Assembly: GCA_016722655.1 (NCBI GenBank)
Contig: JADKIR010000004.1
Span: 1,595,183 to 1,659,182, forward strand
Direction of reading: 5' to 3'
DNA: 64,000 nt
Origin: Cytophagaceae bacterium
GTDB taxonomy: Bacteria > Bacteroidota > Bacteroidia > Cytophagales > Spirosomataceae
Notes under the pieces: model-generated
What the model was told of the DNA's origin: nothing
The model's input: the letters and a program-made list of their open reading frames with translations, nothing else
The model's database searches: none
Position numbers and translations under genes: made by a program
Part shown: piece by piece, positions 13,676-27,254 of the stretch
Numbering within the stretch: position 1 is the first letter of the stretch
How the letters are laid out: each line of letters starts with the position of its first letter

Positions 13676-14149
13676 TCAGATCCCATTTTTTACCAATTTT
13701 CCATCTTCATATTTCCCGATTTCTGATTTCAAAATGGGAGAACTTGCTCCACCTTCAAGATAAATAATCAAAGTTTGCCAATTTTTAGGCACAAATTCAG
13801 TGTAAATCTTATAGTCTTTAAAGTTTCCAAGTCCAATATTTAATTCTTTGTCGTTTGAAAGCGTAACAATAAGCTTTATTGTACCTTCACCAGTTTTTGA
13901 ATTTTCTTTGATTTTTAGTGGGGTTGGCTCACTAACATTTATCATTTTTAAGTTCTCAAAAACGAGTACCGGGCTTCCATTGCTTTTTAAGGTATTGAGA
14001 TTCACATCCTCGATATAAATCTTAAAATCCTTAATTTCAATATTTTCATTGTTGTTGAAAATAAAATTTGGCTCCGATGTCGGCTCAATTAATTTTGAGC
14101 AGGAAGAAATTAAAATTAGTAATGGGAAAAATTTGGCAATTGTTTTCAT
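13676..14149 (-). CDS. hypothetical lipoprotein (157 aa)
   Basis: Signal peptide with a lipobox (LILISSC). AT-rich. No recognisable domain. Confidence 0.6.
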   Translation of the reverse strand: MKTIAKFFPLLILISSCSKLIEPTSEPNFIFNNNENIEIKDFKIYIEDVNLNTLKSNGSPVLVFENLKMINVSEPTPLKIKENSKTGEGTIKLIVTLSNDKELNIGLGNFKDYKIYTEFVPKNWQTLIIYLEGGASSPILKSEIGKYEDGKLVKNGI

Positions 14150-14230
14150 ATTGCAGAGATATAAAATTTTCTAATTATTTAAAATATAAGTTAATTGTAT
14201 AGAGTTTTTCTGAATTGTTTTCCGTAAAAA

Positions 14231-14707
14231 CTACCCCGCAACCATCGTATTTTTATCCTGATTTAATAGTGCTTCCCCATCCAAATAAATCAGATAATTG
14301 AGTTGTTTTTCAGGATTATAGAATTCAGGTAAAATTGATTTGAAAAAAAGATTATTGGTCGATTTTTGACCATTTGAATATTCCGATTGGGTATTGTTGA
14401 CACTATAATAGAAATAAGTTTTTAAGTTATCAATCGATAATTCTCCTTGTCTGGGTAAATTTTGACTTAATTTCTCTCCAAAATATAAGGTTGATCTGTT
14501 AAATATCAAGGTTGAGTCGGCTCCATTTTTAGCACCATTTTTTATCACAATTTTTGAAATATCAAAAGTCGTTTCTTCCAGATTTCTGATAAATTTTGGA
14601 TCCTTTTTTTCACAGGAAAACATATTCAAAAGCAATATTAAATATAAAAGGTTTTTCAAACTACTGTTAATTTTAAGCTTAATTATATTTTTTAAAACCT
14701 TTTCCAT
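14231..14707 (-). CDS. hypothetical lipoprotein (158 aa)
   Basis: Lipobox-like LLLNMFSC. AT-rich. Abuts the upstream gene, with its start at 14707 and that gene's stop at 14709. Confidence 0.55.
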   Translation of the reverse strand: MEKVLKNIIKLKINSSLKNLLYLILLLNMFSCEKKDPKFIRNLEETTFDISKIVIKNGAKNGADSTLIFNRSTLYFGEKLSQNLPRQGELSIDNLKTYFYYSVNNTQSEYSNGQKSTNNLFFKSILPEFYNPEKQLNYLIYLDGEALLNQDKNTMVAG

Positions 14708-14708
14708 A

Positions 14709-15299
14709 TCAATTTTTTAATATCGGACAAGTTAGCTTTAAAGAACTTATCAGTTCTGTATTTAATTTACTTTTATATATCGAAAAATTACCCCATATAG
14801 AAAAGTGGGCTGTAGTACAAAGATTTAAATTCAAATCACCATGGAAAACACCAGATGATTCTTTGTTAAATCTTCCTGACTCCATGGCATATTGCAAATT
14901 AGTGGGAGCGTTGGGGTCTATTAAATGTCTAATTCCACCATTTGAGTATTTTTGATAAAGTTGCAGCCCATAACCAAATCCGATATTTATTTTAGATTTA
15001 AAGACAGATTGATTAAGATTCAATACAAGTTTGGTTGAATTTATTTGATTTTCATTATTTACAAAATTGGGTACTACTTCTTCAGTTTTTATTGAGGATC
15101 TGGAATTTTGTATTTGAATACCTCCATAAGTGTTTTTTGCAATTTTTCTGTTGTAAGTACATCCAAAGGCATTTCCCCATAAATCTCCAGAGGTGAAGAA
15201 AGTTTTGCCAAATTGAAATTGGAAATTTCTTTCCTGGCCATTAGAAAATAAAGGGTTAAAAATCAAAACTATTAAAAGGGTATATAATACTTTCATCAT
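14709..15299 (-). CDS. hypothetical exported protein (196 aa), possibly a small beta-barrel
   Basis: Signal peptide MMKVLYTLLIVLIFNPLFSNGQ. Has alternating aromatic/Gly-rich segments. No C-terminal Phe. Confidence 0.55.
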   Translation of the reverse strand: MMKVLYTLLIVLIFNPLFSNGQERNFQFQFGKTFFTSGDLWGNAFGCTYNRKIAKNTYGGIQIQNSRSSIKTEEVVPNFVNNENQINSTKLVLNLNQSVFKSKINIGFGYGLQLYQKYSNGGIRHLIDPNAPTNLQYAMESGRFNKESSGVFHGDLNLNLCTTAHFSIWGNFSIYKSKLNTELISSLKLTCPILKN

Positions 15300-15324
15300 T
15301 ATTTCGATTCTTTTTTAATTAAAT

Positions 15325-15345
15325 GGGAGGGTATTAAACCCTCCC
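15325..15345 (-). other. strong intercistronic hairpin inside the island operon
   Basis: gggagggt (15325-15332), loop attaa, accctccc (15338-15345). This is a perfect 8-bp GC-rich stem between the 466-aa and 196-aa genes. Confidence 0.6.
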
Positions 15346-15353
15346 GTAATTTT

Positions 15354-16754
15354 TTATTCTTTTAGTTTAAATTTAAAAATTGTAGATTCGTAAATGGTAT
15401 CAAGTGGGTCCCAATAAAATACATCAGTGTCTGCAATTAAATCCTTGCCCGGATCACTTACAATTGAAAAACCTATGCCTGCTTTTATAGTACCAGCTGA
15501 ACTTGTTGACAAACCTAATTTATCTTCCCAACCTGCGTTTACTGTGAAAGTTCCATTATCATTCCAATCTTCCTCCCTCCAGTTGAACCTAAGAACAGTG
15601 TTAGCTGAACTCCAAGATGTCAAAAGAGGAACCGTATAAACCCAGTATTTATCTGTTATAGCATTTCTTGTAGAAGGTTCTAATTTTGGTGTTGTATATG
15701 ATACTCCAGTAGTTCCATTTGGAGAAACTACAACTCTTAATCTCATCTCTGGAGCACCAGAGGCCCATTTTTCCACCACCTTTAAAGCATCATCATTATT
15801 GAATTTCATACTTGTAACTTTTAGAGGGTCTCCATCTTTTCTGGGAGAAGCAGTTGAAGCAATTAAACTACTCCATGCTGAAGCTACACCTGAAACTATA
15901 CTTCTAATTTTGAAAAAATATTTTTGGCCAGCAGTTAAGTTTGTTACATATAAAAAATTTGTATTTGATGCGGTAGTAGAGAGCAAAGTAAATGCTGAAC
16001 CTGTGCTATAATATATTTCATAGGCACTTTCACCTGTAACATCAAGCCATGTTAAATAAAAACTATTTGGCGTTGTATGTTGCAAACCAAGACCGGTAGG
16101 TACGTTATAAACTCTCCCATTTGCGTTTTTCTTTTTTTTGTCGTTAGTTAATTCAATTCTTTCATTAAAACCGACTACTATCACTGGCTGGTCTGGATTT
16201 ACATTGTGATTAATTAAAGCTTTAATCTTACCTTTTCCATAACAAATTAAATAATCTTGGTTATGGTGGTCCAAAGCGGTAACCAATATTTTATGCTTTT
16301 CAACATCCCATTTTTCAATATTTATTGGAATTGAAATGTTTAGTTTGGGATAGGCTAGAATATATTTTTCAAGCCTTCCCCTGAATGATATATCGTCAGT
16401 TGAAATTAATTGCAAGAACCTAGAATTTTCGCTTACCAAACTTGATAAAATAATATCGAAATCACCATCCTTCTTAAGCAATGCATTTGATTTCAAAAGT
16501 TGTCTAAGTTCAACATTATCAAGATTTTCTGCGATATTTTTTGCAATATCATTTAACATGATATTTATTTCCGGTGTAAAATCTGAATTATTATTTATAG
16601 CCCTTAAAGATTTTTGATTATAAGGAATAACCGTGCTTGGAACCAAAAAGTCATCAGTTGTTTTTATATAATTTTGTGGAAGTTTTTCGTCATCATTTTT
16701 ACAAGAAAAAGTAATACTTGTTAAAATGGCAATTGACAATACAATTTTTTTCAT
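15354..16754 (-). CDS. hypothetical lipoprotein with a fibronectin type III-like domain (466 aa)
   Basis: Lipobox ILTSITFSC. The central segment PTGLGLQHTTPNSFYLTWLDVTGESAYEIYYSTG...LTAGQKYFFKIRSI has the Fn3 pattern. Confidence 0.65.
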   Translation of the reverse strand: MKKIVLSIAILTSITFSCKNDDEKLPQNYIKTTDDFLVPSTVIPYNQKSLRAINNNSDFTPEINIMLNDIAKNIAENLDNVELRQLLKSNALLKKDGDFDIILSSLVSENSRFLQLISTDDISFRGRLEKYILAYPKLNISIPINIEKWDVEKHKILVTALDHHNQDYLICYGKGKIKALINHNVNPDQPVIVVGFNERIELTNDKKKKNANGRVYNVPTGLGLQHTTPNSFYLTWLDVTGESAYEIYYSTGSAFTLLSTTASNTNFLYVTNLTAGQKYFFKIRSIVSGVASAWSSLIASTASPRKDGDPLKVTSMKFNNDDALKVVEKWASGAPEMRLRVVVSPNGTTGVSYTTPKLEPSTRNAITDKYWVYTVPLLTSWSSANTVLRFNWREEDWNDNGTFTVNAGWEDKLGLSTSSAGTIKAGIGFSIVSDPGKDLIADTDVFYWDPLDTIYESTIFKFKLKE

Positions 16755-16921
16755 AACTTTATGTGTTTAATTGTTAAAAATTAAATTTTCAAAGCCCTCT
16801 GTATCTGCCAGGATTTTTGGGGGCTTTGTTGTATCAAAGGTCTGAAAGGTTTTTGAGAAAAAAAATCGTCATTTGTCAAGAAAAAAATATACAAATGGCA
16901 ATGTATGTAGCTACATTATTC

Positions 16922-17521
16922 CTACTCTTTTTTGGTTTTTATAGCCTTCCCTCTTACACGACTGAGATTTGTGGCCGTGGTGTTGAGATAAGAGGCTATC
17001 ATATACAATGGTACTTTCTGGCTTAAACCGGGGTGCATGTTGTCGAGGTAAATAAGTCTGTCCTCTACTTTTCTAAGCTGATGCATACGGTTTCGATATT
17101 CGAGCTGTAAAAGATATTTACGGTAGATACTCAAAATGTGTGGGAATAATTCAGCGTTTTGACTTATTAACTTCTCAAACAGTGCTTTACTAATACTGCG
17201 TGCATTTACCTTTGTTTCTGCCCTGATATTGCTGTGTGAAGCTATTTGCAATTCAAAACTTTCGACCTGATAAATCCATTCATTTTCCGGAAGTATCCAA
17301 TAGGTTATTACTTTTTCAGATTCTGGTCCAGATTCAGATTCTGTGTCCGAAAATTCTCTCACTACACCGCTTTCAATAAAGTATATTTTGTCAGAGACTT
17401 CGCCTGTTTTTAGAAGATATTCATGTATGTCAAATTCTTGAATTTCAAATGATTGATCAATGATGTGTGACAATTCAGAAGAAATTGCAATGTGTTTTTT
17501 GAGATATTCTGTTAGCTGCAT
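16922..17521 (-). CDS. Crp/Fnr family transcriptional regulator (cNMP-binding domain plus C-terminal HTH)
   Basis: 199 aa. Has an IYFIESGVVREF beta-roll segment and a C-terminal IASYLNTTATNLSRVR HTH. The architecture matches the paralogue at 54589-55167. Confidence 0.75.
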   Translation of the reverse strand: MQLTEYLKKHIAISSELSHIIDQSFEIQEFDIHEYLLKTGEVSDKIYFIESGVVREFSDTESESGPESEKVITYWILPENEWIYQVESFELQIASHSNIRAETKVNARSISKALFEKLISQNAELFPHILSIYRKYLLQLEYRNRMHQLRKVEDRLIYLDNMHPGLSQKVPLYMIASYLNTTATNLSRVRGKAIKTKKE

Positions 17522-17568: not shown

Positions 17569-17605
17569 GAAAACAAAAAAAGCAGCGATTTTGGGTCGCT
17601 GCTTT
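17569..17605 (-). terminator. rho-independent terminator of the TolC-adaptor operon; right copy of the 37-nt direct repeat
   Basis: gaaaacaaaaaaagcagcgattttgggtcgctgcttt. Stem 17581-17588 pairs with 17596-17603. Confidence 0.8.
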
Positions 17606-17625
17606 GGTATTTAGGCTTTCAGATT

Positions 17626-20811: not shown

Positions 20812-21677
20812 TTATGATTCTTTCTCTTTCACCGACTGAAAAGGCGTTTGTCCAAATTTCTCCTTGTAGCCTTTGATAAAATGTGATACGCTTTCATAAC
20901 CGATACTTTCCGAAACCTGCTCTACATTGCCCAGCTTGTTTTTCAACATAAAAGCCGCATGTTCCAGTTTTTTGTCTTTGATATATTTCCCTGGGGACTG
21001 GCTAAATTTTTCAATAAAATCTCTTTTAAACGACGAAAGGCTTCGGCCAGAAAGTCTCGCCAGCTCGTTGATGTTGAGGGTTTTACGGCAAATGTGTCCA
21101 CAATATAGTCCAGATCGGCTTTTTGTCCGGCATATATCGAGAAAAGCAATTGCCTGAGTTGCTGATTTTTGTCAAATTCCAAAAGATGTAATAATAGCTC
21201 CTGTAGTTTTAGTTTTAAAATCTGATTATGATACCGGCTCTGGGTTTTGAAATAGGGCAGGAGTGAGTCTATATATTTCCCGAATGCCTCATTGGATTGC
21301 AGCACCAGCAACCAGGAGTTTTGAGTTGCGGCAGGCTGTGTATGGGTCTGAAATATTTCCAGATGTTGACTTACAAATTCCTTGAGGAGCTTTTCTTCGA
21401 AAAAAAACACCAGGCTTTTATAAGATTCGTTGATAGACTCCGACATCAGATAGTAGCCCCGCTTTACAAAAAGCACATCGCCTTTTTTTACCCGCACCTC
21501 AGAATTGGAGCTACTGAAAATCTTGTCTCCTTCAAGTATGTACAGTACAGCATTTTCTTCAAAAAACACATCGTTTTTGGAAGGATAAATATTGCTCCTG
21601 TAAGCCACAAAAGTGCTCTCCTGAATCTTCAGGGACTCAAATTGGTCGGCTTTTATTTCAGAGGGTACACGGAGCAT
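20812..21677 (-). pseudogene. AraC family transcriptional regulator, disrupted by a frameshift
   Basis: The N-terminal cupin-like domain is read from 21677 in one frame and ends in nonsense (..AVKPSTSTSWRDFLAEAF..*). The complete AraC HTH domain (RKTLNINELARLSGRSLSSFKRDFIEKFSQSPGKYIKDKKLEHAAFMLKN...GYESVSHFIKGYKEKFGQTPFQ) lies in a different frame and ends at TAA 20812-20814. The frames swap near 21087-21130. Confidence 0.8.
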
Positions 21678-21678
21678 A
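21636..21678. repeat. 43-nt direct repeat, copy A (covers the AraC start codon and first 14 codons)
   Basis: ctcaaattggtcggcttttatttcagagggtacacggagcata, 41/43 identical to 22466-22508. Confidence 0.85.
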
Positions 21679-21770
21679 GAAAGTAGGATTATTATTTTTT
21701 AAAACTGAAAAATAAAAAATTTGAATTTTCTTTTTTAGGGAGATTAGAAATAGGGTGATTTAATTTGAGC

Positions 21771-22220
21771 CTAATTCTTTTTACTGAGATTCTTAATGTC
21801 AATTTTGTCTTGAGGCCTTCCAGAAGCTTTTTTGTTTGCAATCAAATGCTTTAAATTAACAAAATTGATATTTAAACCTTCAACAGCGATGGTCTCTTTA
21901 TTGTCATAGGCTTCCTTAAAGTCAATACCATCTACAGAAGTTAAAATGTCTATTCTAAGTGGAGGATAACCAATTTGGTTAATAATATTTTCTTTTAAAA
22001 AATCTTGTTTTTGAAATGGTAAAGAAGCAAAACCAAAATCTCTTAAAACTAGTAACATTTTTTCTGAATTAGACTCAGAGATTCCAATCCAGATGTCTAA
22101 ATCACCTGTATATCTAGGTCTGCCGTGAAAAGCCATGGCATAGCCACCCACAACTAAATATTCGACAGAGAATTGATTTAGTAAAGATATGAAGTCTTCA
22201 AAATCCTTTTCTAAAGTCAT
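21771..22220 (-). CDS. small pol-beta-fold nucleotidyltransferase-like protein (149 aa), toxin-antitoxin-like
   Basis: Has VVGGYAMAFHG...RYTGDLDIWI, a G[GS]...DxD minimal NTase signature. The size and layout resemble stand-alone DUF6036-type nucleotidyltransferases (family recalled, not searched). Confidence 0.6.
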   Translation of the reverse strand: MTLEKDFEDFISLLNQFSVEYLVVGGYAMAFHGRPRYTGDLDIWIGISESNSEKMLLVLRDFGFASLPFQKQDFLKENIINQIGYPPLRIDILTSVDGIDFKEAYDNKETIAVEGLNINFVNLKHLIANKKASGRPQDKIDIKNLSKKN

Positions 22221-22408
22221 TTCATATGAAAAGTTTTTGTATAAGTTTTATCCATTTTCTGGCCTGAATTTACATTTTGTTTTATCAAAATAAATAAAGA
22301 TTCAAGCCTTTCTTTCTTTGTTTTTCCTTGCCAATAATCAAAATCCAATGATTCTTGATCGCTTTTTAAGGATAAACTCCTTCCTTCTAAAATTATTTTT
22401 CTATCCAT
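22217..22408 (-). CDS. small partner protein (63 aa), putative antitoxin-like
   Basis: Its stop overlaps the NTase start by 4 nt (ATGA at 22217-22220). No recognisable domain. Confidence 0.45.
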   Translation of the reverse strand: MDRKIILEGRSLSLKSDQESLDFDYWQGKTKKERLESLFILIKQNVNSGQKMDKTYTKTFHMK

Positions 22409-22465
22409 ATTTTTGAACTAGAACCTCAAACTAAACAAATTTACATTTTCTTCTTAAAAAAATAG

Positions 22466-22508
22466 CTCAAACTGGTCGGCTTTTATTTCTGAGGGTACAC
22501 GGAGCATA
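22466..22508. repeat. 43-nt direct repeat, copy B (orphan duplicate of the AraC 5' end)
   Basis: ctcaaactggtcggcttttatttctgagggtacacggagcata. On the minus strand it encodes MLRVPSEIKADQFE and then terminates after 3 more codons. Confidence 0.85.
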
Positions 22509-22597: not shown

Positions 22598-25063
22598 ATG
22601 AAGAAATTATTCACCATTTTGTTTTTTATTCTTCCCACATTTTTGCTTGCCCAAACTCAGGTAACTGATTTCCAGACCATTAGCAAGTCTCCAATTGATT
22701 TCAAAATTTTGGGAAAATCTGGCAACAAAATATTTGTTTGGGCAGATAAACCCGAAGGAGCGGATGAAATTTTGGTCAAGGATATTTCAGGTGATAAATT
22801 CAAAGTTTTCTATAATCTGAAGAACGAAGAGTGGATAAACAGCTTTGATTTTTCTGGTAAAACGAAATATATCTCAGTTTTCGATTCAGACCAAAGACAC
22901 ATTCTAAAACTCAATTCTGATAACTCTGGATTTGAAAAAATCAAATTGCCTGACAACACTGATCAGGTTTATTCGCTGGCAGATAAATTGTTTTTTACAA
23001 AGAATAGAAGGTTATTCTTGTTGGAGAAAGTTAAATATTTGTACCAATTCAAAATTTTTAAAAATGAATATAAATTAATTCAAAAACTGAATGACAATCA
23101 GATTCTTATAAAATATGATGATTACTCAGTTGGAATTGTGGGTAGCAATCTGGCAGAAAAAACACTAAATCCAGGGGTCCAATTTAATGGGTTTTCCTTT
23201 GAAAATGAGCAATTGATTTTTTACTCTCCGGAGGAAATCGTGATTTGCGATAATTTTTTCAATATTATTACTAAGAAAAAAGTAAACTTTTATGAAAAGC
23301 CTAAAAATGCTTATTTCAAAGTATTCACTGATAAGAATTACATTATATCAGTAGGGTATAAATTTAAACTCCATAATTATTACACCATCGAGCCTAACTT
23401 TATTGTAAGTAAATCATTTATTTCTGAGGATAGATTGATGGTTTTAAATGATAGCGGCTATGTTACGAGAGGAGAGCTTTCTATTGATGGAGGACCTACT
23501 AATTTTAAGAAAGTTTCTAATTTCCTTTCGATTGGCTCCGAAGTTTATTTCTTATCATTCAATTATGGTAATTCTTCCAGCAATGGCTTGTTTCTTAAAG
23601 TTTTAGATCATGAACAATTTAAGATTAAAAGCTATAAAATTTCTGATTCACTTTTCAAATCTCAATCTTACCATGGAAAACAGCAAATAGGATCTTTGGT
23701 CAATATTGGTAATCAGCTTGTTATATTTTCTAATAGCTCACCTCTACCACTAGCATTATATGACTTAACAAAAAAAGAATTAGTAAAATCAGATATTAAA
23801 ACTCAAAACTATGTAGGAAGTATCAACCAAAATGAGGCTTCTTTTTTGGTTAAAGAAGGGGAGACTATTGTGGAATATGACCTATCGGCCATAACAAAAA
23901 ATACGTTTTTAAATGAGAATATAAGCAAATGGGAATCTGGAATTAAAAAGCATTTTAAAGTGGCTGACGATCTTATATTTTTAGTAGAAAAGCCTGATAA
24001 ATCAAGTTTTTTGGCAACTATAAAAGATAATAAGCCACATATTTTACTTAATACTAATGTATTCTCAAATGGATTTAACTTATATGCCGACTGGAAGATT
24101 GATAAATTTCGAAATTTTTTAGTATTTCAAATAGGTCAGGAGATTAAAGGATTTGAATACGATAACCAGAAAAATCTATTAACAGAAATAAATATCGGAA
24201 ATGGAAATTACTTTGCAGAGGTAGGCAAATATTATGATAAATTTTGGTTTCAGCGTAATTCCCAATTATTGTCAATTGATGAAAATCTTCATGTAAATAT
24301 TTTAAGAAATTTTTCCGGTTACCCCAAAGTTTTAAACATTTTTGAAAACAACGATGTGCTTTATTCCACTGATACTTCCTTGAATTATTTCTCCAATGAT
24401 AATAAAAAGGATTTAAAACTTTCTGATGGCTATACAGAAATATTAAGTATTGAAAAAAATAAAGTATTATATAAAGCCGGAAGGAAAATTATGCAATTTA
24501 TCCCTTCCTCAGGAGCTTTGACTGTGAGCTATTCATTTCCGAATAATTTTTTTGATGTGATGTCAACGAGTAATTATAGACTTATTGGAGATTACTATAG
24601 TTTTGATTATAAGATAATTGTCAATCAAACGGCTCAGGTTTATAATTTTGAGAAAGAGTATATGCCTTATAAAGTCATTGAAGGAAATTTTCTATTTTTT
24701 GTTAAAAACAACATAAGTAAGCTTAATATTCTAAATCTGAAAACGCAATCCAAAAAGTCAATAGATTTACCAAAATACCCCATTGAAACGAGTCTTATTG
24801 CAAGCAATGATACATTTGCACTGGTTAGGATTGACAAAGAGGTTTATTCAATTAATCTTTTGGAAAATGATTTGAAATTATCACCATTGGATTTAGATGA
24901 AAATTGCATTCAGTCAAATTTTGGGTCACTTTATCTTTTTTCTGATAAATCAGAATTTTTAATTTTTGATATTAAAACGGGAAAAATTGTCAGGCATAAA
25001 CTCAATCTTTCTGGGTTTGGTTTTAATCAATATTTATCAAAAAAAATGGGAAATATTTATTAG
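22598..25063 (+). CDS. hypothetical secreted protein (821 aa), probably the N-terminal part of a split T9SS cargo gene
   Basis: Signal peptide MKKLFTILFFILPTFLLAQ. Very AT-rich. Ends at TAG 25061-25063, in the same frame as the next ORF. Confidence 0.6.
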   Translation: MKKLFTILFFILPTFLLAQTQVTDFQTISKSPIDFKILGKSGNKIFVWADKPEGADEILVKDISGDKFKVFYNLKNEEWINSFDFSGKTKYISVFDSDQRHILKLNSDNSGFEKIKLPDNTDQVYSLADKLFFTKNRRLFLLEKVKYLYQFKIFKNEYKLIQKLNDNQILIKYDDYSVGIVGSNLAEKTLNPGVQFNGFSFENEQLIFYSPEEIVICDNFFNIITKKKVNFYEKPKNAYFKVFTDKNYIISVGYKFKLHNYYTIEPNFIVSKSFISEDRLMVLNDSGYVTRGELSIDGGPTNFKKVSNFLSIGSEVYFLSFNYGNSSSNGLFLKVLDHEQFKIKSYKISDSLFKSQSYHGKQQIGSLVNIGNQLVIFSNSSPLPLALYDLTKKELVKSDIKTQNYVGSINQNEASFLVKEGETIVEYDLSAITKNTFLNENISKWESGIKKHFKVADDLIFLVEKPDKSSFLATIKDNKPHILLNTNVFSNGFNLYADWKIDKFRNFLVFQIGQEIKGFEYDNQKNLLTEINIGNGNYFAEVGKYYDKFWFQRNSQLLSIDENLHVNILRNFSGYPKVLNIFENNDVLYSTDTSLNYFSNDNKKDLKLSDGYTEILSIEKNKVLYKAGRKIMQFIPSSGALTVSYSFPNNFFDVMSTSNYRLIGDYYSFDYKIIVNQTAQVYNFEKEYMPYKVIEGNFLFFVKNNISKLNILNLKTQSKKSIDLPKYPIETSLIASNDTFALVRIDKEVYSINLLENDLKLSPLDLDENCIQSNFGSLYLFSDKSEFLIFDIKTGKIVRHKLNLSGFGFNQYLSKKMGNIY

Positions 25064-25096
25064 TTAAGATTCACAAATGATTCAAATCAAAAGAAC

Positions 25097-25645
25097 TTGA
25101 TTTTGAATGAAAATTTAGAAGTGATTTCTGAAAGTACTGGTGAATATTCGTACATCACTCAAAATCCTATTATCAGCTTTCAGGGCAAAAAATATTTTAT
25201 TAACTCAGATCCATTTTTTGGAACTGAAATCTGGACTTCAGATGGTACTTCGGCAGGAACCAGAATTTTTTCAGATATTTTTTCTGGTAAAAATAGCTCC
25301 TCTCCTCAACAAATATTTGAAAATGATGGAAAACTGTACGCTTTAGCAACTGGTAATCCTTCCGGCGTACAGATTTGGGAACTGAATAGCGACCAGAAAC
25401 TGGAAAAGGAAGAACCAAAAATTATAGTTTTTCCTAACCCCATGGGAAATGCATTTTCAATTTATATCAATAAAGTTGGTAAGGAATTTCATTTTAATAT
25501 TTTCGATAGTAATGGCAAAATTTATAAAAAAGAGAAATTTTATAAAAATGGCCAAAATTTTGACGCAAGTGATATTCCGTCTGGATTATATTTTTTGAAA
25601 AGTGAGGATGGGCAATTCTTACAGAAAATATTAATAATGAAATAA
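25097..25645 (+). CDS. ELWxxDGT-repeat fragment plus T9SS C-terminal sorting domain (182 aa from a TTG start)
   Basis: Has the FFGTEIWTSDGTSAGT motif. The C-terminal ~75 aa (IVFPNPMGNAFSIYINK...GLYFLKSEDGQFLQKILIMK) resemble a Por/T9SS type A sorting tail. No signal peptide. Same frame as 22598-25063. Confidence 0.5.
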   Translation: MILNENLEVISESTGEYSYITQNPIISFQGKKYFINSDPFFGTEIWTSDGTSAGTRIFSDIFSGKNSSSPQQIFENDGKLYALATGNPSGVQIWELNSDQKLEKEEPKIIVFPNPMGNAFSIYINKVGKEFHFNIFDSNGKIYKKEKFYKNGQNFDASDIPSGLYFLKSEDGQFLQKILIMK

Positions 25646-25676: not shown

Positions 25677-27254
25677 CTACTTCTTCACCCCCGGTTGCAA
25701 AATCTCAAACTTTTCCTGCTCTTTGGCTTTTTTAACGATGTTTTTTACATCTTCCAGGAGCTTTTTGGCATCGTAAACTATGCCGTCTTTAATAGTATAT
25801 TTTACGCCTCCAGCTCTTATAACTTCATTGTTTTCGGTCACCTTTATAGCCCCGGTGCCGTAAAGAGAAGAGAAATTTGCCAGAGGATTTTCTTCCGTAA
25901 TCACAAAATCAGCCAATTTGCCTACTTCCACAGATCCAATTTCTTTATCAACACCCAAAGCCTCTGCTCCTTTGATGGTTGCTGACCTGATTACTTCCAG
26001 TGGATGAAAGCCTGCTTCTCGCAGCAATTCCAACTCACGGATATAGGCAAAGCCATAGAGTTGATATATATACCCCGAGTCAGAGCCAGTGGTCACCCTA
26101 CCACCTTTGTTTTTGTATTCATTTACAAACCGCATCCAGATTCTATAGTTTTCTTTCCACTGAATTTCCTGCTCTGTGCCCCAATTGAGCCAATAGCTGC
26201 CATGAGAAATACGACTTGGGCCATAAAAACGCCAAAGAGCCGGCAGTGTATAGTCTTCGTGCCATTCAGCCCTGCGTGCCCGCATAAAGTCGCGGTTGGC
26301 TTCATAAATATTAAATGTGGGGTCAAGCGTGAAATCAATTTTCAGCAGCTCGTCCATTACTTTATACCATTTTTCTGAGCCGGGTGCTGCTGCTTGTTTC
26401 CAGAGCTTTCCGGCTTCTTCAAAGCGGTTTTGTTCGTTATTGTAATTATAATCCGCCGGATAATTTTGCAAAGTGCGGTCATCAAATAGTGCCTCGGGCA
26501 GCCCATACCAATGCTCCATGGAGGTTAAGCCGGCTTTGGCTGTGGCTAAAACATTCATTCGGGCTACTTCCAGCTGGGCATGATGGCACGCAGACCGTAA
26601 ACCCAGATTTTTGTTTTCTTCCAGAGCCGCCCTGAAAACATTGGGTTCGGCTCCGAAAAACTTGATGCCGTCAGCACCTTTATTTGCATTATTTTTTACC
26701 CATTCTCTGGCGGCTTCAGGTGTGGTTATGGGTTTATCGGACCCACTACCGAAAAATGTATATGCGTAAATCCTGGGTGCGACTATTTCGTTGTTCAGGC
26801 TTTTTTGTTTGTGTGCCAAAGTCCAGTCAATACCATTGCCCGAGCCGGGTTCCCTCACCGTAGTTACGCCATGAGCCAGCCAAAGTTTAAAAACATATTC
26901 CGATGGCGTGCCTTGTTCCTTACCACCAATATGCCCGTGCATATCTATAAATCCCGGCATAAGGTACATGCCTGTGCAATCCAGCTCTTTGTCACCTGCT
27001 TCAACTTTAGGCCTTCGCTTACCATCAATGGGTACGCCTGGGTAGCCCACCTGTCTGATTTCTTTAATCCGGTTTTGCTCCACCACAATATCAATTGGCC
27101 CCAAAGGTGGTGCTCCTGTAGAATTAATCAGGGTCACGCCCCGAATTATCAGTTTTTTATAAGGACCATCACCTTCTGATCGTTTTGGTGCGTCTTTGAT
27201 TTGAGCAAAAACCTTGAGATTTAACAGAAGAATGACAAATAGTATTTTTTTCAT
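25677..27254 (-). CDS. amidohydrolase family metallo-hydrolase, secreted
   Basis: 525 aa with a signal peptide and the PGFIDMHGH metal-binding motif. Confidence 0.75.
   Translation of the reverse strand: MKKILFVILLLNLKVFAQIKDAPKRSEGDGPYKKLIIRGVTLINSTGAPPLGPIDIVVEQNRIKEIRQVGYPGVPIDGKRRPKVEAGDKELDCTGMYLMPGFIDMHGHIGGKEQGTPSEYVFKLWLAHGVTTVREPGSGNGIDWTLAHKQKSLNNEIVAPRIYAYTFFGSGSDKPITTPEAAREWVKNNANKGADGIKFFGAEPNVFRAALEENKNLGLRSACHHAQLEVARMNVLATAKAGLTSMEHWYGLPEALFDDRTLQNYPADYNYNNEQNRFEEAGKLWKQAAAPGSEKWYKVMDELLKIDFTLDPTFNIYEANRDFMRARRAEWHEDYTLPALWRFYGPSRISHGSYWLNWGTEQEIQWKENYRIWMRFVNEYKNKGGRVTTGSDSGYIYQLYGFAYIRELELLREAGFHPLEVIRSATIKGAEALGVDKEIGSVEVGKLADFVITEENPLANFSSLYGTGAIKVTENNEVIRAGGVKYTIKDGIVYDAKKLLEDVKNIVKKAKEQEKFEILQPGVKK

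Follow-up and report, generated by a model that had tools for sequence, protein, structure and literature searches.

How do the first 14 codons of a regulatory gene come to stand twice on the same chromosome, once joined to the gene itself and once left at its upstream region, with a pair of small genes in between? This question is raised by a 64-kb stretch of DNA (contig JADKIR010000004.1, positions 1,595,183 to 1,659,182; hereafter the window, all 64,000 nt of it) from a Spirosomataceae/Cytophagaceae bacterium known from activated-sludge metagenome-assembled genomes (MAGs). On its minus strand, the beginning of an AraC/ExsA-family regulator gene is present as two direct repeats (copies A and B) which are identical at 41 of 43 positions and spaced by 830 nt, leaving 787 nt between the copies for a cassette of two genes. 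Each repeat reads T, then ATG and 13 further codons, and encodes MLRVPSEIKADQFE, the two mismatches (TCT/TCA and CAA/CAG) being synonymous third positions. The duplication is best read here as a homing arm, with a cassette spreading among related bacteria and a design recurring at many gene ends. In this reading, which we hold with moderate confidence, the cassette is a small horizontally mobile unit of addiction type, devoid of a recombinase of its own and integrating by means of the AraC-start arm that it carries. The features on which the argument leans are as follows (all coordinates are those of the window).

21636..21678, minus strand: repeat copy A, T plus ATG plus 13 codons, the AraC/ExsA-type working start, placed by 24 homologue N-termini
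21679..22465, minus strand: inserted cassette, 787 bp, missing from loci L093 and L096
21771..22220, minus strand: 149-aa nucleotidyltransferase of DUF6036/DUF2204 type with a GG...DLD motif, predicted fold nearest to MenT1
22217..22408, minus strand: 63-aa open reading frame (ORF), candidate antitoxin, member of a conserved small-partner family
22436..22443, minus strand: TAAATTTG, perfect match to the Bacteroidota -7 box (TAnnTTTG)
22454..22507, minus strand: orphan mini-ORF MLRVPSEIKADQFELFF plus stop, a 17-aa frame kept in all lineages
22466..22508, minus strand: repeat copy B, the orphan 14 codons on the native upstream region, identical to the single copy in the empty sites of L093 and L096
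22509..22597, no strand: native 89-nt intergenic region common to the divergent secreted-protein gene, identical in empty and occupied sites

Within the window the 43-mer occurs in two copies only, even if up to 3 mismatches are allowed, while shuffled sequences predict none; terminal inverted repeats and a transposase are missing as well, which rules out a multi-copy repeat or transposon, a possibility kept in sight by an earlier reading of this locus (hereafter the sequence-only reading). An assembly artefact is likewise ruled out because the duplicated architecture recurs in independent contigs, over 25 in number, drawn from NCBI MAGs as well as ENA, JGI and Logan assemblies. Copy A aligns without offset to the N-terminus conserved among 24 homologues and, since MLRVPSEI.A.QFESLKIQ is the family-wide conserved N-terminus of the AraC gene, it represents the real start. 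Copy B continues for three codons (LFF) and then stops, so that an orphan of 17 codons is formed, its last three codons and stop being supplied by the left end of the cassette.

The decisive comparison is provided by two metagenomic contigs, L093 and L096, where an AraC protein of 98% identity is preceded by the same 89-nt upstream region and the same divergent secreted-protein gene, without the cassette. The empty site reads ...AAATCTAAT/ATGCTCCGTGTACCCTCAGAAATAAAAGCCGACCAGTTTGAG/TCCCTAAAG and contains a single 43-mer. Near-isogenic L092 carries the orphan, 787 bp and copy A, its repeats being identical over 43/43 positions; the left flank coincides with that of L093 in 2751/2751 and the right flank in 1314/1317 nucleotides, and the sole difference between the two is 787 bp plus one 43-mer. 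Since the empty site is found in a near-isogenic strain, the locus represents a precise insertion of 787 bp accompanied by a 43-bp repeat. This substantiates what the sequence-only reading had proposed, namely that 41/43 direct repeats at 21636-21678 and 22466-22508 both encode the same peptide on the minus strand, that copy A is the working start, that copy B is an orphan stopping after three more codons on the original upstream region, and that a discrete two-gene insert separates them; the uninterrupted junction of promoter region and AraC, which it had suggested looking for in relatives, is present in both contigs. The empty sites, near-isogenic with occupied strains (those of lineage P below) while all other lineages have the cassette, find their simplest explanation in recent precise losses. 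No orphan copy was detected at the AraC loci of 80 other species (species representatives outside this species group). A peptide hit in Runella zeae (L058) proved to be a matter of chance, lying antisense inside another gene with 30/80 nt identity, and nucleotidyltransferase homologues located about 5 kb upstream of Dyadobacter AraC orthologues (L035, L038, L068 and L078) are devoid of flanking repeats and unrelated to this event.

Exact-protein look-ups revealed five lineages with the cassette at the same site: W (the window) and P (L091, L092 and L094), both with a gene for a protein bearing a sorting tail of the type IX secretion system (T9SS) upstream; F1 (L183-L188) with the T9SS gene upstream and ftsZ downstream; F2 (L189-L192 and L195) and F2b (L011 and L100), both with HigBA upstream. 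Despite these different surroundings the junctions GAG/YTATTTTTTT and CTACTTTCT/ATG (slashes mark the borders) and the spacing of 828-830 are common to all five. The cassette differs between W and P at 5/788 positions and the AraC body at 25/812; the respective values are 25/788 and 78/813 for P and F1, and 2/787 and 26/813 for F1 and F2. Across the five lineages cassette divergence is 3-10 times below that of the adjacent AraC gene (Fisher p from 3e-4 to 1e-7). For the comparison of codon positions only the pairs P-F1 and F1-F2 were used, the window being excluded because of a frameshift in its AraC gene; for P-F1, 65/270 third positions differ in AraC and 12/213 in the two cassette genes. 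The amidohydrolase flank differs by about 12-16% between W or P and F2b, and mismatch density rises abruptly at copy A. Judged by these divergences, the cassette is evidently younger than its flanks.

The same figures may be approached from the assumption of one ancient insertion, inherited vertically and now immobile, with empty sites produced by deletion between the repeats and with gene conversion, homologous exchange or slower substitution accounting for both the low cassette divergence and the mosaic repeats described below. Parsimony lends something to this explanation, since occupation of the same site in all lineages from W to F makes L093 and L096 secondary losses, and cassette divergence tracks the grouping of hosts. 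We nevertheless consider it unlikely. Third positions of the cassette diverge 4-5 times less than those of AraC and its non-coding ends are less diverged too, so that constraint at the protein level is insufficient, and divergence changes just at the repeats, whereas flanking DNA would have been carried along in ordinary homologous imports.

More is told by the repeats themselves. The start of the orphan is lineage-specific: W and P share ATGCTCCGT, F1 has ATGCTCCGGGTACCA, and F2 and F2b have ATGTTAAGA (the orphan lying 1 nt past the HigA stop in these two), while copy A begins with ATGCTCCGN in every lineage. All differences between and among the repeats are synonymous. In W, copy A combines TCT with CAA, found in neither copy of any other lineage, and the orphan has TCA and CAG like all others. 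The repeats of F1 differ at 4/42 positions (9.5%), which fits the inter-lineage divergence of AraC (about 10%) and not that of the cassette (0.3-3.5%). On this pattern of differences, the repeats are evidently hybrids of resident and cassette-borne sequence, and a host-specific orphan start, a constant start of copy A and a young cassette taken together argue that one of the repeats was brought by the cassette. Placing the crossover between positions 15 and 18 of the 42 nt agrees with the repeats of every lineage, although variable crossovers fit equally well. An empty site was not found in the F lineages, where look-ups returned occupied or incomplete sites. The sequence-only reading had reserved an ancient event for the case that relatives show the same arrangement with diverged repeats: such an arrangement is indeed seen, but it does not point to one old duplication in situ, given the host-specific 5′ part of the orphan, the 5′ part of copy A travelling with the cassette and the lower age of the latter. 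For the vertical scenario, codon 4 co-varying between both repeats in L190 and L195 may be added to the favourable points, and on the opposite side a host-specific orphan joined with a constant copy-A start would not be expected from local conversion between two copies.

The mosaic structure bears also on a true long target-site duplication, by which staggered breaks 43 nt apart were filled in, both repeats being resident and their differences of later origin. Such fill-in would yield two identical copies of host type, and hybrid repeats do not fit it. Independent events in at least three lineages would need exactly the same two break points; the repeats of F1 and F2 differ at 4-5/42 positions while their cassettes differ by only 0.3%; and the differences are all synonymous, with a constant 5′ part in copy A and a host-specific one in the orphan. 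What makes this duplication attractive is lineage P, whose repeats are identical over 43/43 positions to each other and to the empty site, an insert lacking both arm-independent features and an integrase, and the repeats of 46 to more than 400 bp around restriction-modification genes devoid of mobility genes (Furuta et al., 2010; PMC2853133). Together with the observations on related cassettes given below, the balance leaves it improbable in our estimation.

The AraC site is not the only one occupied by this family. A metagenome scan with an alignment of the nucleotidyltransferase yielded 80 loci, 68 of them evaluable, for which the repeat score was defined as the best ungapped direct repeat between upstream and downstream sides of the gene pair with a threshold of at least 17. 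This threshold is reached by 15 of the 68 related cassettes, to which L181 is added, with repeats of 17-123 nt; mismatched locus pairs gave a mean score of 9.9 and a 95th percentile of 12, and 150 random control placements a maximum of 14, none of them reaching 17. The repeats are spaced by 0.8-1.5 kb and enclose the gene pair only. The cassette family thus repeats this architecture at other gene ends:

murB start (ATG plus 15 codons): L110, L107, L116 and L165, repeats of 29-48 nt
tRNA-Met 3′ end: L162 with 86 nt, L134 with 35 nt and L164 with 36 nt
tRNA-Arg 3′ half: L144 and L147, 57-63 nt
3′ ends of protein genes up to the stop codon: L179 with 123 nt, L181 with 115 nt and L177 with 39 nt
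other targets: L120 with 76 nt, L153 with 30 nt and L161 with 17 nt

In the murB repeats the coding part is about 96% identical versus about 78% for the adjoining 5′ untranslated part (flanks aligned by eye), and the tRNA-Met cassettes have, at the end next to the orphan, a degenerate piece resembling an anticodon arm; both observations fit an imported arm. L161, a close relative of the tRNA-Met cassettes, occupies a different site and retains a remnant of the tRNA target. Cassette and murB are equally diverged in the murB group, yet repeats within one genome are 86-96% identical and share lineage-specific variants, which suggests concerted evolution or repeated excision and reintegration. The first of these options, given equal divergence of cassette and host and repeat variants shared within genomes, counts in favour of the ancient vertical insertion. 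As for fill-in of staggered breaks, support comes from repeat lengths varying between 17 and 123 nt over the family and from the exact 17-nt repeat of L161 at its new site, while in several cases one border of the repeat falls at or within a few nucleotides of a gene end (the ATG of AraC, the stops in L177, L179 and L181, the 3′ end of tRNA), unlike what random staggered cuts would produce.

The tRNA-Met(CAT) sites show a peculiarity of their own. Cassettes stand there in apparent tandem arrays of small units with tRNA 3′ halves, broken at the anticodon loop, between them (L164:3196-4200, L125:484-1420, L168:3330-3500, L178:3330-4130 and L162:1932-2060), and in the orphan tRNA-like piece the place of the "variable loop" is taken by a perfect palindrome of 18 nt, CCCCGATAGCTATCGGGG. 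A set of near-identical cassettes (L174, L160, L167, L171 and L176) has a different tRNA for a neighbour, on the upstream side of the cassette, with iterated tgcgtgagg motifs after it; ctgcgtgaggaaaac recurs further downstream (0.7-2 kb downstream in L172 and L157), which suggests a larger repeat-bounded island containing the cassette.

Occurrence at gene ends and at tRNA genes naturally evokes integrases. One may suppose that a larger integrative element, whose tyrosine or serine integrase recognized the AraC start, left the cassette behind by decay or has it as a satellite, the repeats being attL and attR and the unit moving in trans in the manner of a CIME. CIME-like cis-mobilizable elements, relatives of ICESt1, were reportedly described by Pavlovic and coauthors in 2004. 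The architecture is that of classical att sites with an element supplying the displaced gene end, one crossover point, fixed between positions 15 and 18 of the 42-nt repeat, would serve all lineages, and the tRNA-Met arrays with their tRNA 3′ halves resemble accretion driven by integrase. Yet an integrase is absent from the cassette, where only the 63-aa and 149-aa ORFs are found and a transposase is equally lacking, and from the surroundings: in Pfam lists for the called genes of about 10 kb on each side, taken from sister loci matching the window at 99.6-99.9%, neither integrase nor transposase domains occur. About 45 loci contain no larger element at the AraC site, the orphan is seen in 0/80 of the species-representative AraC loci mentioned above, and the cassette is without relatives in viral contigs. 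Moreover, at least seven targets of one gene pair of 0.8-1.4 kb would need many integrases or repeated decay flush with both att sites. The chances of this explanation are low in our judgement.

If, instead, the cassette carries an arm of its own, the course of events may be pictured as follows. It would bring its own copy of the first 14 codons of AraC as an arm of 42-43 nt and would enter by a single reciprocal (Campbell-type) recombination between this arm and the start of the resident gene, for which a circular form is the simplest assumption. The product would be arranged in the order of old upstream region, hybrid orphan start, cassette, hybrid working start and AraC body, so that the reading frame of the regulator is rebuilt and the cassette genes come to follow the old AraC promoter in the same orientation. 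Recombination between the repeats would remove the cassette exactly, the expected excision junction being CTACTTTCT-ATGCTCCGTGTACCCTCAGAAATAAAAGCCGACCAGTTTGAG-CTATTTTTTTAAG, and the unit could spread in this way among related lineages. The reaction might be served by host homologous recombination acting on a short arm or by a site-specific recombinase provided in trans. The model predicts that native AraC starts are ATGCTCCGGGTACCATCA in F1 and ATGTTAAGAGTA in F2, not the copy-A type ATGCTCCGTGTC...

A number of observations weigh against entry through a carried arm. A circular or tandem junction was not found among the loci examined, and no recombinase was identified in the cassette or within ±10 kb. 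The longest perfect match between host and arm in F1 measures 17 nt (4 mismatches per 42 nt), which is short for recombination of RecA type, and the native AraC starts of the F lineages are deduced from the orphans, no empty site having been found there. The repeats of lineage P and the empty site, all identical, fit fill-in duplication equally well. An arm covers the spread to relatives sharing the target and not the first acquisition of an arm for a new one, and L161 has come to a new site with a 17-nt repeat, still in company of its former tRNA remnant. The murB cassette, being as diverged as murB, indicates that long vertical residence also occurs, and the lowest cassette divergence within host groups indicates some admixture of vertical descent or preferential exchange between close lineages. 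A wider generalization is advanced only tentatively and with considerable doubt, namely that DUF6036/MenT1-like two-gene cassettes could form an undescribed class of minimal mobile elements in Bacteroidota, "homing addiction cassettes", which lack a recombinase, carry a short arm matching a host-gene end (start codon region, stop codon region or tRNA 3′ half), excise and reintegrate through this arm, occasionally with a new one, and are stabilised by toxin-antitoxin activity.

What the two genes encode is approached by prediction. The 149-aa protein matches Pfam DUF6036 and DUF2204 below the cut-off and is recognised by neither PADLOC nor NCBIfam, but a profile built of 35 nucleotidyltransferase homologues matches PDB entry 8an4 (AbiEii/AbiGii-family toxin) with E 3.5e-4. 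In a Foldseek search its AlphaFold model (pLDDT 91) has the MenT1 structures 8an5 and 8an4 as best matches (8an5_B of the MenAT1 complex with E 1e-6 and TM 0.70), and the protein thus models as a toxin of MenT1/AbiEii type. Relatives of the nucleotidyltransferase were not found in viral contigs, which rules out phage origin of the cassette, and a literature search on DUF6036 retrieved no papers from the library consulted. The 63-aa ORF overlaps the 149-aa ORF by 4 nt (ATGA), as read in the window and in L011, and conforms to the family consensus ..D..YWL....ER..AVT.L.S....QRMDKT. It has no match in Pfam, NCBIfam or PADLOC, and a word-indexed search for homologues returned its own cluster only; membership in the family was established by alignment of partner ORFs extracted from cassette loci. 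A partner was callable in 74 cassette loci; it is such a small ORF, of 50-79 aa, in 58 of them, its length falling between 60 and 69 aa in 56 of these. The toxin-antitoxin-like nature of the pair, claimed by the sequence-only reading, receives moderate support from the MenT1-type model of the 149-aa protein and from the small overlapping partner upstream. The remaining 16 of the 74 callable loci have a longer upstream ORF instead (130-206 aa, mostly about 140 aa; for example L179:271-702 and L120:3097-3504), without a Pfam match for the one in L179; these cassettes also lie between long repeats (123 nt in L179 and 76 nt in L120).

With regard to expression, the 89-nt intergenic region presumably holds the original AraC promoter, and transcription of the cassette from this promoter, which the sequence-only reading regarded as captured, would fit the geometry, since all parts share one strand and a search for intrinsic terminators between orphan, cassette and AraC found none. 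The box TAAATTTG is the only perfect TAnnTTTG on the minus strand of the region and precedes the 63-aa ORF by 28 nt; it may be the cassette's own promoter, though the motif is not enriched in the window and gives only a lead. A scan for sigma-70 promoters was uninformative, the host belonging to Bacteroidota. The ends of the cassette are free of inverted repeats, and its G+C content is about 29% against about 40% for the genome.

The genes around the insertion are the following.

20812..21677, minus strand: AraC/ExsA-family regulator gene (ExsA_N plus HTH_AraC, by Pfam)
22598..25645, plus strand: one or more divergent genes of low GC content (821-aa and 182-aa ORFs) encoding a protein with a T9SS sorting tail
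25677..27254, minus strand: amidohydrolase gene (by Pfam)

The AraC gene is split in the window into ORFs of 244 aa (Pfam ExsA_N, E 2e-41) and 45 aa (HTH_AraC/HTH_18) by the loss of 1 nt in a run of C near 21081 (21078-21090; CCC versus CCCC in L001) and is whole, with 288 aa, in sister assemblies. Since 20 kb of alignment between the window and L001 contain 2 mismatches against 10 gap openings, the frameshift is an assembly error in a homopolymer, and a pseudogene is ruled out. Different operons follow AraC, which in the F lineages precedes ftsZ, ftsA and ftsQ (L011:8990-12547 and L183:5990-9532) and in the window lineage and Lacihabitans relatives a TolC/membrane-fusion efflux operon; either AraC has parted from the operon presumed to be its target, or it is the operon that was relocated. 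In Lacihabitans and Leadbetterella the amidohydrolase gene lies directly upstream of AraC, with neither cassette nor orphan.

The divergent side is variable as well. The gene with the T9SS tail differs among close lineages, being represented by 821-aa and 182-aa ORFs in the window and by a single 545-aa gene in P and F1, and only its first ~500 nt are alignable between lineages (L092:1364-3001 and L184:2441-4078). In F2 lineages a HigB/HigA pair resembling PD-Lambda-2 A/B takes the place of the secreted-protein gene (L011:6498-7171, L190:3404-4170 and L195:1088-1761). This HigBA ends 1 nt before the ATG of the orphan, the first codons of which are recoded (ATG TTA AGA), and the junction is spanned by a 12-nt palindrome, TTAACATGTTAA; HigBA itself may have arrived attached to an AraC start. 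Elsewhere in the window, a second low-GC block (28-33%) at 14000-17000 contains ORFs of 158, 196 and 466 aa without confident Pfam domains and may be another acquired segment, and a 37-38-nt sequence (17569-17612) just upstream of the membrane-fusion gene, encountered twice more in L091 (12773-12810 and 13930-13966), is a short dispersed repeat.

Units without a recombinase lying between long target duplications have been known for restriction-modification systems since 2000, their mechanism being still unresolved. "Insertion with long target duplication" of restriction-modification gene complexes was reportedly first set out in that year by Nobusato and coauthors. At the present locus an exact empty site is available, together with five lineages whose hybrid repeats are informative and with related cassettes at no fewer than seven other gene ends, which makes concrete tests possible: whether the repeat is imported as a homing arm, whether RecA or a recombinase in trans is responsible, and whether the proteins of the cassette take part. 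If the notion of homing addiction cassettes is true, they would provide a natural system for the 25-year-old question of such insertions. A selfish toxin-like module is able to occupy the first codons of a regulator without destroying the gene, possibly under the regulator's promoter, and orphan gene starts or ends beside small low-GC gene pairs may serve as an annotation signature for elements of this kind.

Among known systems, transposons, insertion sequences and integron cassettes share with this unit a discrete insert between direct repeats. Unlike transposons, it lacks terminal inverted repeats and a transposase, and its repeat measures 43 nt (17-123 nt in relatives) versus 2-15 bp; unlike integron cassettes, it has no palindromic attC-like end and no integron integrase and stands as a single unit inside a gene start, not in an array. 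Integrase islands, prophages and CIMEs come nearer by repeats equivalent to attL and attR, an element-borne copy restoring the interrupted tRNA or protein gene, hybrid repeats, precise excision and tandem tRNA arrays, while the absence of an integrase in or near a 787-bp cassette of two genes and the use of many targets by one pair set it apart. MenAT1 (Rv0078B/Rv0078A) and AbiE resemble the gene pair in a small upstream gene overlapping that of the nucleotidyltransferase, in the predicted fold, to which MenT1 is nearest, and in the G...DxD motif; they differ in sequence, identity being about 22%, and in the 63-aa partner, which lies outside known antitoxin families. Nothing similar emerged from a literature search for toxin-antitoxin systems bounded by direct repeats. 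The nearest parallel in the literature is insertion with long target duplication as documented for restriction-modification units without mobility genes, with repeats of 46 to more than 400 bp present once in the empty site and with the mechanism left unresolved (Furuta, Abe and Kobayashi, 2010; PMC2853133), and all its structural traits except the cargo recur here. Common to both are a short addiction unit without integrase or transposase, absent from a close relative, a repeat of more than 30 bp which is single in the empty site and varies in length from case to case, and deviant G+C content of the insert. The differences concern the cargo, a nucleotidyltransferase toxin-like pair in place of restriction-modification genes, the hosts, which are Bacteroidota, and above all the repeats, which coincide here consistently with gene ends and whose hybrid composition argues that one copy was imported and not copied from the target.

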